Positions 537 to 4,209 of a DNA stretch of 4,209 nucleotides are shown here, piece after piece; the stretch's first letter is position 1, and each line of letters begins with the position of its first letter. A program made the position numbers and the translations under genes. The DNA is from a virus (taxonomy: Duplodnaviria; Heunggongvirae; Uroviricota; Caudoviricetes), in the IMG/VR virus record IMGVR_UViG_2737471850_000003, one strand, 5' to 3'. The notes under the pieces were generated by a model. The model was not told the DNA's origin and did no database searches. It was given only the letters and a program-made list of their open reading frames with translations.

Positions 537-745
537 AAAAACTCATCAAACCTTCCTCTTTTCAGTTAATTCTTTTAAGAATAAACATCAGTAACTCGGG
601 CCGGGCTTAATGATACGGTTGGCGAATCACACTTGTTTCCCCATACGTCGAAACCGTGGGAGGATTTACGCGCAAAGAGCTCAATACGTGGAAGATTACC
701 CAGCAACCGAACCAGCATTTCACGCACGCAGTCTGGTTTACGTGA

Positions 746-1462
746 GTGCTCATGTCGCGGCGAGGTGTAGTGCTGGATGATCGAGGCGTCCTGCTGTGGT
801 GCCCGCTTACCGGGATCGACGTGAGAGCTGTCGAACAGGGGGATGATGCATGGCACAAATTACGGCTCGGCGTCATCACCGCTTCAGAAGTTCACAACGT
901 GATAGCAAAGCCCCGCTCAGGAAAGAAGTGGCCTGACATGAAAATGTCCTACTTCCACACCCTGCTGGCTGAGGTTTGCACCGGTGTGGCTCCGGAAGTT
1001 AATGCTAAGGCGCTGGCCTGGGGAAAACAGTACGAGAACGACGCCAGAACCCTGTTTGAATTCACTTCCGGCGTGAATGTTACTGAATCCCCGATCATCT
1101 ATCGCGACGAAAGTATGCGCACCGCCTGCTCTCCAGATGGTTTATGCAGTGACGGCAACGGCCTTGAACTGAAATGCCCGTTTACCTCCCGGGATTTCAT
1201 GAAATTCCGGCTCGGTGGTTTTGAGGCAATAAAATCGGCTTACATGGCCCAGGTGCAGTACAGCATGTGGGTGACGCGAAAAGATGCCTGGTACTTTGCC
1301 AACTATGACCCGCGCATGAAGCGTGAAGGCCTGCATTATGTCGTGATTGAGCGGGATGAAAAGTACATAGCGAGTTTTGACGAGATGGTGCCGGAGTTCA
1401 TCGAAAAAATGGACGAGGCACTGGCTGAAATTGGTTTTGTATTTGGGGAGCAATGGCGATGA
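746..1462 (+). CDS. exo: Lambda exonuclease (Red-alpha, Exo) homologue with a divergent or truncated N-terminus; possibly a pseudogene.
   Basis: From [48 protein letters not shown]... to the C-terminal ...[11 protein letters not shown] the translation matches phage lambda Exo as I recall it, nearly residue for residue. The first ~11 lambda codons are replaced by non-lambda sequence. The track start at 746 is a GTG directly after an in-frame TGA (743-745); the first ATG is at 752; no convincing Shine-Dalgarno precedes either. Confidence 0.85.
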
Positions 1463-1641
1463 CGCATCCTCACGATAATATCCGGGTAGGCGCGATCACT
1501 TTCGTCTACTCCATTACAAAGCGAGGCTGGGTATTTCCCGGCCTTTCTGTTATCAGAAATCCACTGAAAGCACAGCGGCTGGCTGAGAAGATAAATAATA
1601 AACGGGGGGCTGTATGCATAAAGCATCTCCCGTTGAGTTAA
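1453..1641 (+). CDS. Lambda exo-xis region small protein, orf60a-like.
   Basis: Position immediately downstream of exo and overlapping its stop, as in lambda. The second ATG at 1459 has a GGGGAG Shine-Dalgarno 8 nt upstream and gives exactly 60 aa, so 1459 is the likelier start. Identity is from gene order, size and recalled similarity, not a search. Confidence 0.6.
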
Positions 1642-1805
1642 GAACGAGTATCGAGATGGCACATAGCCTCGCTCAAATTGGAGTCAGGTTTGTGCCAATA
1701 CCAGTAGAAACAGACGAAGAATTTCATACGTTAGCCGCATCCCTTTCACAAAAGCTGGAAATGATGGTGGCGAAAGCAGAAGCAGATGAGAGAGACCAGG
1801 TATGA
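1614..1805 (+). CDS. Lambda exo-xis region small protein, orf63-like (63 aa).
   Basis: 63-aa ORF overlapping the end of the orf60a-like gene by 28 nt; G-rich Shine-Dalgarno (GGGGGG, 1604-1609) upstream of the ATG; size and position match lambda orf63. Confidence 0.6.
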   Translation: MHKASPVELRTSIEMAHSLAQIGVRFVPIPVETDEEFHTLAASLSQKLEMMVAKAEADERDQV

Positions 1806-1885
1806 CAACCACTGAATGCATTTTTCTGGCAGCGGGCTTCATATTCTGTGTGCTTATGCTTGCCGACATGGGACTTGTTCAATGA
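1802..1885 (+). CDS. Possible 27-aa hydrophobic micropeptide (MTTTECIFLAAGFIFCVLMLADMGLVQ), translationally coupled on both sides.
   Basis: ATG at 1802 overlaps the orf63 stop (ATGA, 1802-1805); its own stop TGA (1883-1885) overlaps the ATG at 1882 of the next ORF. Hydrophobic core suggests a single transmembrane helix. Not in the ORF track (too short). Could be a chance frame. Confidence 0.2.
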   Translation: MTTTECIFLAAGFIFCVLMLADMGLVQ

Positions 1886-2097
1886 CACCTCAGCAGGAAA
1901 ACGCCCTTCGCAGCATTGCCCGTCAGGCTAATTCTGAAATCAAAAAAGCCAGACAGCAGTTTCCGGATAAAAACGTCGATGACATTTGCCGTAGCGTACT
2001 GAAGAAGCACCGCGAAACGGTAACGCTGATGGGATTCACACCGACTCATTTAAGCCTGGCGATCGGCATGTTAAACGGCTTCTTTAAGGAGCGATGA
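1816..2097 (+). CDS. Exo-xis region protein, orf61-like (93 aa from ATG 1816; 71 aa from the alternative ATG at 1882).
   Basis: ORF in the expected position between the orf63-like and TraR-like genes. Neither candidate start has a strong Shine-Dalgarno; the 1882 start is favoured by its ATGA overlap with the upstream small ORF. Assignment to lambda orf61 is by position only. Confidence 0.45.
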   Translation: MHFSGSGLHILCAYACRHGTCSMTPQQENALRSIARQANSEIKKARQQFPDKNVDDICRSVLKKHRETVTLMGFTPTHLSLAIGMLNGFFKER

Positions 2098-2189
2098 ACA
2101 TGAAAAGCAAAATCATCAGGGAGCTACAGGCTCCTTTTTTATTATTCGCATTCACCCTCAAGCGTATTAACCAACAATTCAGGGATTAA
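2094..2189 (+). CDS. Possible 31-aa small ORF (MNMKSKIIRELQAPFLLFAFTLKRINQQFRD).
   Basis: ATG at 2094 overlaps the stop (2095-2097) of the preceding ORF in the ATGA arrangement; ends 7 nt before the TraR-like start. Not in the ORF track. Speculative. Confidence 0.15.
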   Translation: MNMKSKIIRELQAPFLLFAFTLKRINQQFRD

Positions 2190-2195
2190 TGGAAG

Positions 2196-2414
2196 ATGGC
2201 AGACATCATTGATTCAGCATCAGAAATCGAAGAATTACAGCGCAATACAGCAATAAAAATGCGTCGTCTGAACCACCAGGCTATATCTGCCACTCATTGT
2301 TGTAAGTGTGGCGATCCCATAGATGAACGAAGACGCCTGGCCGTTCAGGGTTGTCGGACTTGTGCAAGTTGCCAGGAGGAGATCGAACTTAAGAACAAAC
2401 AATGGGGATTGTGA
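2196..2414 (+). CDS. DksA/TraR-family C4-type zinc-finger protein (phage TraR-like; position corresponds to lambda orf73).
   Basis: 72-aa protein with a C-x2-C-x17-C-x2-C motif (Cys35, Cys38, Cys56, Cys59: CKCGDP ... CRTCASC) and an acidic N-terminal segment (DSASEIEELQ), as in F-plasmid TraR and phage TraR-like proteins. Confidence 0.75.
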   Translation: MADIIDSASEIEELQRNTAIKMRRLNHQAISATHCCKCGDPIDERRRLAVQGCRTCASCQEEIELKNKQWGL

Positions 2415-2461
2415 TGGCCTCAAAGCAGCAAATTTCAACATCGTCCAACTGAGGTGTAAAA

Positions 2462-2701
2462 ATGTTCAGAATCATTTTTCCTAACACCTGGTACGTCGAC
2501 CACCACGGCACTCCCTGCAAAATCCTGCGTTCTACCCACAACAAAGTTCACTACATCCGAAAAGGCAGAACATGTATCGCCAGCATGTTCCGCTTTAATC
2601 ATGACTTTGAACCTGTGAATAAAGCTGATGCAGATCGGATAGCAGAAGAGATCGAAACGGCAGAACACATTAAGAAGTTACGTGCCATACGCAGGAAATA
2701 G
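2462..2701 (+). CDS. Hypothetical 79-aa protein of unknown function, occupying the position of lambda ea22/ea8.5.
   Basis: Good Shine-Dalgarno (GAGGTG, 6 nt before the ATG at 2462). His/Cys-rich N-terminal half, basic C-terminus (KKLRAIRRK). I do not recognise a family. Confidence 0.5.
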   Translation: MFRIIFPNTWYVDHHGTPCKILRSTHNKVHYIRKGRTCIASMFRFNHDFEPVNKADADRIAEEIETAEHIKKLRAIRRK

Positions 2702-2830
2702 AAAAATTGATAAATTCAATACTGCATTTCTCAGCATTAAATTTATCTCTATGACCAGTCAAGAGATGTACCTGCCATGAGCTTAATATCATGTCAGATA
2801 TATCGGTCACAAACTCCCTCAGCAGCTAAG

Positions 2831-2836
2831 AGGAGG
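2831..2836 (+). promoter_or_regulatory. Shine-Dalgarno (AGGAGG) for xis.
   Basis: Canonical AGGAGG 4 nt upstream of the xis ATG at 2841, within the 139-bp AT-rich intergenic region 2702-2840. Confidence 0.5.
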
Positions 2837-2840
2837 ACAA

Positions 2841-3077
2841 ATGTCTCGACTAATCACTTTACAGGACTGGGCTAAAGAAGAATTTGGGGACTTAGCACCA
2901 AGTGAGCGAGTTCTGAAAAAATACGCGCAAGGGAAAATGATGGCCCCACCCGCTATAAAAGTTGGTCGCTACTGGATGATTGACCGAAATTCCCGTTTTG
3001 TAGGAACGCTGGCAGAACCGCAACTCCCAATAAACGCAAACCCAAAACTCCAACGGATAATCGCTGATGGCTGCTAG
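2841..3077 (+). CDS. xis: Excisionase (Xis-like recombination directionality factor).
   Basis: 78-aa protein immediately upstream of, and overlapping by 11 nt, the integrase gene; N-terminus (MSRLITLQDWA...) and the PP..K.GR segment parallel lambda Xis (MYLTLQEW...PPPVKDGRE). Not identical to lambda Xis. Confidence 0.8.
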   Translation: MSRLITLQDWAKEEFGDLAPSERVLKKYAQGKMMAPPAIKVGRYWMIDRNSRFVGTLAEPQLPINANPKLQRIIADGC

Positions 3078-4209
3078 ACCCCGATCTCACAAAATCTCTA
3101 TACCCAATTTATATTGCAAATTAGATAAGCGAACCGGAAAGGTATATTGGCAATACAAACATCCACTATCCGGTCGTTTTCATAGCTTAGGAACTGATGA
3201 GAATGAAGCAAAACAAGTTGCTACTGAAGCAAATACCATTATTGCTGAACAACGTACCAGACAAATATTAAGCGTCAATGAGCGTCTGGAAAGAATGAAA
3301 GGCAGGCGCTCAGACATTACGGTGACAGAATGGCTTGATAAATATATTTCTATCCAGGAGGACAGGCTGCAACATAATGAACTAAGACCCAACTCCTATC
3401 GGCAAAAAGGCAAACCCATTCGTCTTTTCCGTGAGCATTGTGGAATGCAACACCTCAAGGATATTACCGCACTTGATATTGCCGAAATAATTGATGCTGT
3501 AAAGGCTGAAGGTCATAACAGGATGGCGCAAGTCGTGAGAATGGTGTTGATCGACGTCTTCAAAGAAGCACAACACGCAGGACATGTTCCGCCAGGATTT
3601 AACCCAGCGCAGGCAACAAAACAACCGCGAAATCGAGTAAACCGCCAAAGATTGTCACTGCCCGAATGGCAGGCAATATTTGAAAGCGTAAGCAGACGGC
3701 AGCCCTATTTAAAATGCGGCATGCTACTTGCTCTTGTTACTGGACAACGTTTAGGCGATATCTGCAATTTGAAATTCTCTGATATATGGGACGACATGTT
3801 GCACATTACTCAGGAAAAAACCGGTTCAAAACTTGCTATTCCGCTTAACCTGAAATGCGATGCTCTGAATATTACCCTTCGTGAAGTTATATCTCAGTGC
3901 AGGGATGCTGTTGTTAGTAAATATCTGGTCCATTACCGTCACACTACCTCTCAAGCAAACAGAGGAGACCAGGTTTCTGCAAATACTCTGACAACGGCTT
4001 TTAAAAAGGCCAGGGAAAAATGTGGCATAAAATGGGAGCAAGGAACTGCGCCCACATTTCATGAGCAGCGATCTCTGTCAGAACGGTTATATCGGGAACA
4101 GGGTCTGGATACGCAAAAGTTGTTAGGCCATAAATCCAGAAAAATGACCGACCGATACAATGATGATCGTGGTAAAGACTGGGTTATCGTAGATATCAAA
4201 ACAGCATAG
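3067..4209 (+). CDS. int: Tyrosine site-specific recombinase, lambda Int family (prophage integrase).
   Basis: 380-aa ORF with lambda-Int-like N-terminal arm-binding region (RPRSHK..PNLY...RTGK) and conserved catalytic residues by alignment to lambda Int: Arg228 (TGQR, codon 3748-3750), Lys255 (KTGSKLAIP), His332/Arg335 (FHEQRSLSERLY), His355 (LLGHKS), Tyr364 (RYNDDRG, codon 4156-4158). Stop codon is the last three bases of the window. Confidence 0.95.
   Translation: MAARPRSHKISIPNLYCKLDKRTGKVYWQYKHPLSGRFHSLGTDENEAKQVATEANTIIAEQRTRQILSVNERLERMKGRRSDITVTEWLDKYISIQEDRLQHNELRPNSYRQKGKPIRLFREHCGMQHLKDITALDIAEIIDAVKAEGHNRMAQVVRMVLIDVFKEAQHAGHVPPGFNPAQATKQPRNRVNRQRLSLPEWQAIFESVSRRQPYLKCGMLLALVTGQRLGDICNLKFSDIWDDMLHITQEKTGSKLAIPLNLKCDALNITLREVISQCRDAVVSKYLVHYRHTTSQANRGDQVSANTLTTAFKKAREKCGIKWEQGTAPTFHEQRSLSERLYREQGLDTQKLLGHKSRKMTDRYNDDRGKDWVIVDIKTA

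Follow-up and report, generated by a model that had tools for sequence, protein, structure and literature searches.

The only studied relative of the gene described here is RgdR (ECs1581 of Escherichia coli O157:H7 Sakai, c1493 of CFT073), a protein of 99 residues that comes from the PICI-like cryptic element OI-51 (Flockhart et al. 2012, PMC3378721). RgdR is a small modulator of transcription with global effects: it activates the LEE1 promoter independently of Ler, leading to increased type III secretion, and it also represses motility and raises Congo red binding (PMC3378721). Its binding to DNA is non-sequence-specific, a natural variant that does not bind is inactive, and the R20C change gave mixed results; orthologues of RgdR were defined by the authors as having more than 77% similarity over the full 99 residues (PMC3378721).

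A described locus for comparison is the region that precedes xis in phage lambda, where the order is orf73, ea22, ea8.5, orf55 and then xis. Ea22, Ea8.5 and Orf55 are expressed early from pL, and a part in modulating RNA polymerase or the choice between lysis and lysogeny has been suggested for them; in fold, Ea8.5 combines a homeodomain with a zinc finger, and Orf55 is similar to T7 Gp2 (PMC8614690). We focus here on a 79-residue ORF, ORF79, which in a lambdoid prophage sits in the slot that Ea22, Ea8.5 and Orf55 occupy in lambda, between orf73 and xis, and we compare it with RgdR and with the lambda arrangement.

The locus and its gene order

The window, by which we mean the whole stretch of 4,209 nucleotides that was analysed (IMG/VR record IMGVR_UViG_2737471850_000003), is the left-arm end of a lambdoid prophage. 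It carries, in order, exo (about 808–1462, + strand), a gene for a DUF1317 protein homologous to orf60a (1453–1641), a gene for a DUF1382 protein homologous to orf63 (1614–1805), an orf61-like gene that matches phrog_303 over its full length (1816–2097, + strand), a gene of the TraR/DksA zinc-finger type homologous to lambda orf73 (2196–2414, + strand; Pfam zf-dskA_traR, phrog_54), ORF79 (2462–2701, + strand), an excisionase gene of the phage-21 type (2841–3077, + strand; Pfam Exc) and an integrase gene with a lambda-type arm-binding domain (3067–4209, + strand; Pfam Arm-DNA-bind_1 and Phage_integrase). The TraR-like protein is 90% identical to that of lambda orf73, a gene that is unannotated in NC_001416. 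The original prediction had placed ea22 and ea8.5 between the TraR-like gene and xis of lambda; this comparison is correct, and lambda also has orf55 there. A tblastn search with ORF79 of lambda positions 27700–32100 gave no match at an E value of 1e-4 or better. Lambda orf55 (lambdap35) was considered as a diverged DUF4222 gene and rejected, having neither a DUF4222 nor any other Pfam match, and the xis-proximal YmfH of e14 was likewise rejected as a diverged DUF4222 protein.

ORF79 runs from an ATG at 2462 to the last nucleotide of its stop codon at 2701, as given in the ORF list, and encodes 79 residues. Its Shine-Dalgarno sequence, GAGGTG (2451–2456, + strand), read from the sequence, is a perfect 6-nt match to the anti-Shine-Dalgarno, with 5 nt between its end and the ATG, so that the strong ribosome-binding site first reported for this 79-residue frame is indeed present. 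The interval between the TraR-like gene and xis measures 426 nt and contains ORF79 as its sole supported ORF. No promoter-like site was found directly 5′ of ORF79, such sites being no commoner than in shuffled sequence, and an Rfam scan of the whole window gave no match. The product is a small basic protein (pI 9.9) with 4 His and 2 Cys in residues 1–40 and a tail, KKLRAIRRK (71–79), of net charge +6; the residue counts agree with the earlier description of a His/Cys-rich N-terminal half and a basic C-terminus.

A DUF4222 protein under purifying selection

ORF79 had been described as unassigned, which is not the case. It scores 69.8 bits against Pfam DUF4222 (PF13973; cutoff 27), with residues 3–53 matching profile positions 1–53 of 53, and it matches phrog_285 over its full length (residues 1–79, E = 8e-37). 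A protein identical to ORF79 in strain 65COLEC carries the RefSeq name 'DUF4222 domain-containing protein', and a distant relative, RgdR, has been characterised. A scan of ORF79 against NCBIfam gave no match. With a threshold of at least 90% DNA identity, ORF79 is present in 2,347 of the 5,426 complete E. coli genomes (43%) and in 41 phage records; the lambda-like coliphages 4A7, Lambda_4C10, 1W, 3W and PhiR47_2 carry it with 100% identity. Escherichia, Shigella, Salmonella, Citrobacter, Enterobacter, Klebsiella and Lelliottia all have prophages with a homolog, and ORF79 fits the DUF4222 pattern of a small single-domain protein of prophages and satellites of Enterobacteriaceae. ORF79 is an ordinary, very common and already annotated gene of a known family. 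An exhaustive search with a profile of the ORF79 subfamily recovered only 46 clusters.

DUF4222 paralogs in BP-4795 (ORF4), phiP27, YYZ-2008, Shigella phage 75/02 Stx and Klebsiella phage ST101-KPC2phi6.1 are 33–47% identical to ORF79 and share with it the domain, a size of about 80 residues and an MF… start; in BP-4795, phiP27, many Stx phages and the Klebsiella phage, they lie one to three genes upstream of xis/int. The database also includes a few apparent DUF4222 fusions (P0122, 167 residues; P0300, 171 residues; P0136, 165 residues), which join a TraR zinc finger to DUF4222, an MT-A70 N-terminus to a DUF4222 C-terminus, or PF24746 to DUF4222. These are probably artefacts of gene calling or assembly, or products of recombination junctions, rather than true domain fusions.

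The reading frame itself is conserved. The homologs used for comparison came from phage HK639 and from prophages of Citrobacter, Lelliottia, Enterobacter and Pseudocitrobacter, and they differ from ORF79 at most synonymous sites (dS 1.0–2.3). Against them, the ORF79 frame has dN/dS values of 0.08–0.20, whereas the +1, +2 and antisense frames over ORF79 give 1.2–2.4. ORF79 is under strong purifying selection, and the check for frame conservation that had been proposed with the original prediction gave a frame that is intact in the homologs. Furthermore, all homologs of ORF79 have an ATG-TTC start behind at least five unrelated upstream modules, and a Shine-Dalgarno-like motif lies 5–10 nt 5′ of their start whichever upstream module precedes it. 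A 77-residue antisense ORF (2435–2668) was rejected as a gene, with dN/dS above 1 and stop codons in some homologs.

Comparison with RgdR

RgdR, whose sequence was taken from the Sakai genome, scores 82 bits against Pfam DUF4222, and ORF79 is 30% identical to it over 47 residues (E = 3e-5). The homology search that had been suggested as a refuting check thus leads to a characterised protein and largely deflates the original finding, but at this low level of identity. In a 38-sequence alignment that covers both branches, D13, G16, G35, C38, F45 and F49 are invariant throughout DUF4222, Y11, I21, Y31 and R33 are kept at 90% or more, and the RgdR branch stands clearly apart from the ORF79 subfamily. 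Judged by sequence, ORF79 is not an RgdR orthologue; the two have the DUF4222 domain in common.

ORF79 shares with RgdR this domain and its invariant core residues, a small size, strong basicity and a location on a mobile element. The differences are several. First of all, RgdR has an N-terminal extension of about 16 residues, predicted to be disordered, that is absent from ORF79, and its RGD tripeptide (residues 20–22) aligns to P7-N8-T9 of ORF79. Second, ORF79 has a shorter linker and a different motif in the C-terminal helix. Third, RgdR overlaps the start of a DUF927 primase gene in its PICI-like element and lies 2.2 kb from int, in an island without a TraR-type gene; ORF79, on the other hand, is found in the lambdoid exo–xis region next to xis.

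Predicted structure

Structure prediction, proposed as a check along with the original prediction, gave a confident β-barrel followed by a helix, in the same architecture as that modelled for the RgdR branch. The AlphaFold2 model of ORF79, based on the 38-sequence alignment of both branches, has a pLDDT of 85.5 and forms a small barrel from strands at residues 10–12, 18–24, 28–33, 36–41 and 50–52 and a short helix at 42–48, after which comes a single long C-terminal helix (54–78). The DUF4222 domain (residues 3–53; 2468–2620, + strand) is thus predicted to be an SH3/Tudor-like five-stranded β-barrel, and the helix (2621–2695, + strand) has an acidic first half and a basic end in this model, with a charge split of −4/+6. 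The model of an RgdR-branch protein shows a disordered N-terminus and then the same order of elements as in ORF79, with a barrel pLDDT of about 92; both models have the SH3/Tudor-like barrel, the short helix, the last strand and the long C-terminal helix. Ea8.5 and Orf55 of lambda have folds that differ from that of ORF79 (per PMC8614690).

In the ORF79 subfamily, the helix motif E-x3-H-[IL]-K-K-L-R is kept even in distant representatives, with H69, L73 and R74 invariant, whereas the C-terminal helix of the RgdR branch has a different sequence. The last approximately five codons of ORF79, which encode the RRK tail, lie past a recombination junction, and other alleles end in …LRAQRAA or continue as …LRDMRSKSRG… (SfI). 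The basic C-terminus that was pointed out from the start is therefore real in this allele but is not a constant feature, its tail being replaced in other alleles. The nucleic-acid binding that had been attached to it is still plausible by analogy, since RgdR binds DNA non-specifically (PMC3378721), a property with which the pI of 9.9 of ORF79 is consistent.

Sequence searches of the PDB, with the single sequence and with the 38-sequence profile, gave nothing useful (sole hit 2ldk, E = 0.37), and Foldseek searches of the model against the PDB and BFVD gave weak, generic small-barrel hits only. Structure comparison names FeoA, DUF1653, CarD, NusG KOW and Mfd. Tudor/SH3-like domains that bind RNA polymerase include the C-terminal domain of UvrD/PcrA, the RNA polymerase-interacting domains of CarD and Mfd, and NusG KOW, and the ORF79 barrel as modelled has the five-stranded Tudor/SH3-like form of these domains. 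However, they are only 2–11% identical to ORF79 in structural alignments, with no homology at the profile level, and they belong to large proteins and lack the C-terminal helix of ORF79. The likeness seen in the model is one of fold only.

A separately exchangeable module

The stretch 2458–4209 of the window is 98.7% identical to positions 346–2097 of the classical int–xis record GenBank M61865, which hold the DUF4222–xis–int segment of phage 21; xis and int of the window are therefore of the phage-21 type, which inserts at icd, and in strain 65COLEC the same prophage adjoins icd. The DUF4222 ORF of phage 21 (M61865 350–589) is the same gene as ORF79, merely unannotated in the record; the two differ at 15 of 240 nt (94% DNA identity), and their proteins are 90% identical.

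BLAST comparison divides the phage relatives into three classes. First, many lambdoid and Stx phages match the TraR gene only, up to about 2391, at the 3′ end of orf73. Second, SfI, Turner and PhiR70_1 match the TraR and DUF4222 genes up to about 2691 and then have a different xis/int. Third, PhiR57_1 and phage 21 match DUF4222 and xis/int from 2458 onwards, with other genes upstream. A left mosaic junction zone lies at 2391–2461, as seen by BLAST and by comparing the upstream sequences, and a right junction falls within the last ORF79 codons at 2685–2691, where the alleles of SfI, Turner and PhiR70_1 diverge. From these three classes, ORF79 is thus a mosaic module that is exchanged separately. 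The idea of a variable accessory slot beside the integration module is supported both by the lambda order and by the mosaic BLAST patterns (PMC8614690). A survey of the slot, also suggested at the outset, found ORF79 homologs in the exo–xis region in 11 enterobacterial loci; a TraR-like gene lies upstream of the homolog in 10 of the 11, and between the homolog and xis/int, which are of several types, there are zero to five variable genes.

A functional pair of TraR and DUF4222 was considered on the basis of their adjacency in lambdoid loci and was rejected; the RgdR island has no TraR-type gene, and we thus treat the adjacency as conserved gene order. Prophage Sp8 of Sakai has a phage-21-type int/xis next to icd, with oppositely oriented replication genes directly after xis, and the whole exo–xis region including the DUF4222 gene is absent from it. 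The annotation of an 'icd pseudogene' at 537–700 in M61865 would make the 3′ end of ORF79 and the following spacer icd-derived attachment DNA, which BLAST rejects. The real icd fragment of M61865 lies at 2048–2369, downstream of int, and the feature annotated at 537–700 is misplaced; the icd coordinates fit when counted from the opposite end of the 2910-nt record.

Neighbouring elements and the state of this copy

The orf61-like gene of the window is one continuous frame of 93 residues from its first ATG (71 residues from MTPQQ… in RefSeq). In the lambda reference (extract L002 3013–3325, − strand), the same sequence is split into orf61 (61 residues) and an unannotated ORF of 60 residues, and on this comparison lambda orf61 appears to have suffered a frameshift. 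The space between orf61 and the TraR-like gene contains a 31-residue ORF (2094–2189, + strand), inside which a terminator-like GC hairpin (2118–2136) is followed by a T-run, TTTTATTATT; ribosome profiling of lambda reportedly detected a 31-residue peptide in this block (PMC8614690). Just 3′ of the ORF79 stop codon lies an AT-rich inverted repeat (2709–2747; GATAAATT…AATTTATC, about 16 pairs), which is part of the phage-21-type xis module and is kept in phage 21 and PhiR57_1. As an RNA fold or a terminator the repeat was rejected (z = −1.07, no T-run on the + strand), and it could be a protein-binding site. At the other end, positions 1–363 (− strand) encode the N-terminal part of a protein named 'phosphoribosyltransferase-like protein', which has a PRTase-CE domain (PF24390, 34 bits), and in the intact prophage a NADAR-family gene follows the PRTase-CE gene in the nin region. 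Cargo of the conflict-system or anti-defence kind is one possible reading; a PADLOC scan was without a hit.

The prophage in the window is a deletion remnant. Positions 1–811 and 805–4209 match the prophage of 65COLEC 6.0 kb apart, with a 7-nt overlap that defines a deletion junction at 805–811, and window positions 575–1462 are affected by it. Compared with 65COLEC, the missing DNA comprises the rest of an MT-A70 pseudogene, P, O, ydaT, cro/cI-like genes, kil, gam, bet and the N-terminus of exo. Because of the junction, the 238-residue 'exo' ORF (746–1462) has a foreign N-terminus. The junction was found in none of the complete E. coli genomes of the collection. The prophage has lost its immunity region and, if pL is placed in the repressor region by analogy with lambda, pL as well; as a result of this deletion of about 6 kb, ORF79 may be poorly expressed or silent in this window.

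A proposed role in transcription

We tentatively propose, as the likeliest of the functions considered, that ORF79 works like RgdR by modulating the transcription of the host or of the phage. With its family membership, an architecture that matches RgdR, its operon position and its mosaic behaviour established, we infer a regulatory activity, a partner and a contact with DNA along the following lines. ORF79 belongs to a leftward early operon and has no promoter-like site of its own; in intact relatives this would be the pL operon, with kil-gam-bet-exo between the repressor region and xis-int. The protein would act early after induction or infection. The partner onto which its barrel docks would be RNA polymerase or a nucleoid-associated protein, while the basic end of its helix would provide a weak, sequence-independent contact with DNA. 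Modulation of transcription would be of low specificity and dependent on the partner, and it would shift promoter use globally while the choice between lysis and lysogeny is being made. Such a role fits the surroundings of the gene, since RNA-polymerase-directed roles have been proposed for its neighbour, the TraR-like Orf73, and for lambda Orf55 (PMC8614690).

The LEE itself cannot be the target of ORF79, given how often the gene is found in strains and genera without it. The three phenotypes of RgdR, increased LEE expression and Congo red binding together with reduced motility, are what would be expected either from antagonism of H-NS or from a shift of RNA polymerase of the ppGpp/DksA/TraR kind. 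It is conceivable, though we consider it doubtful, that all DUF4222 proteins form one family of mobile-element Tudor-like factors that reprogram global transcription by docking on RNA polymerase or by counteracting a nucleoid silencer such as H-NS. A family so defined would span RgdR on PICIs, the ORF79 type in lambdoid exo–xis regions and the paralogs in Stx phages.

Alternative explanations

The main rival to a transcriptional role is that ORF79 is a host-takeover, anti-defence or exclusion factor that acts by other means, its small β-barrel binding, inhibiting or redirecting a specific protein of the host or of a competitor. We regard this as possible but rather unlikely. Many accessory proteins from early phage operons work in this manner, and SH3-like barrels are generic protein-binding modules; the conserved helix motif E-x3-H-[IL]KKLR suggests a specific interaction surface, and a hypervariable accessory slot that is exchanged as a module is consistent with such a function. 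ORF79, on the other hand, matches no PADLOC defence model and has no annotated homolog with a function of this kind, and its sole characterised relative acts on gene expression (PMC3378721).

It is much less probable that ORF79 assists Xis and Int in site-specific recombination by bending DNA or setting directionality, even though its place right before xis would then make sense, and in most phage records it lies within about 0–2 kb of xis/int; it is also a small basic protein with a relative that binds DNA non-specifically. The mosaic pattern argues against this. Nearly the same ORF79 allele (at least 95% amino acid identity) is found with unrelated xis/int, of the phage-21 type at icd and of the SfI type, and a specific role in recombination is unlikely because one allele would thus serve different integrases. 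Furthermore, prophages of Enterobacter and Citrobacter place up to five genes between the ORF79 homolog and xis, RgdR lies beside a primase gene and 2.2 kb away from int, and no such gene is present in lambda or in Sakai Sp8, which has the same type of int/xis.

Highly improbable, in turn, is the original idea of a zinc-finger-like protein in which a His/Cys metal-binding domain precedes a basic nucleic-acid-binding tail. The 4 His and 2 Cys among residues 1–40 gave rise to this reading, and within the close subfamily (at least 56% identity) C19, C38 and H26 do not vary at all, while H15 and H30 are nearly invariant. This conservation does not extend further. In distant members of the ORF79 subfamily, C19 is replaced by V, A or I and C38 by N, T, R or S, and H15 and H26 vary; the RgdR equivalents of the Cys/His residues are V, C, E and Y, with C19, H15 and H26 all replaced, and once the RgdR branch is added to make up the 38-sequence alignment, C38 alone among them stays invariant. 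There is no CxxC or HxxH motif in ORF79, whose only two Cys are 19 residues apart, and thus no knuckle of this type; neither Pfam nor the PDB gave a zinc-finger match, and the domain is confidently predicted as an ordinary β-barrel that needs no metal. A conserved metal site in ORF79 is therefore unlikely, given that its Cys and His residues are not conserved across the DUF4222 family. Finally, there is next to no chance that ORF79 is a chance ORF or a pseudogene without a protein product: although it is short, many chance ORFs of similar length occur in the window and the prophage is a remnant, this reading is already refuted, as far as sequence analysis reaches, by the low dN/dS confined to the ORF79 frame, by the start codon and Shine-Dalgarno motif kept across homologs, by the strong matches to the DUF4222 and phrog_285 profiles and by the presence of an intact gene in viable phages and thousands of genomes.

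Implications

The value of ORF79 as a discovery is small, as the gene is annotated as DUF4222 in thousands of genomes and the family has a published founding member. The ORF79 subfamily is nevertheless among the commonest uncharacterised prophage genes of E. coli, and its home, the exo–xis region, is known to bias the lysis-lysogeny decision and the induction of Stx prophages. If all DUF4222 proteins were indeed one family of transcription-reprogramming factors, ORF79 would be its early-operon version, acting beside the TraR-like Orf73 in the lysis-lysogeny decision. Furthermore, RgdR, the only relative of ORF79 that has been studied, controls a major virulence system, and a function for ORF79 could clarify the mechanism of RgdR.
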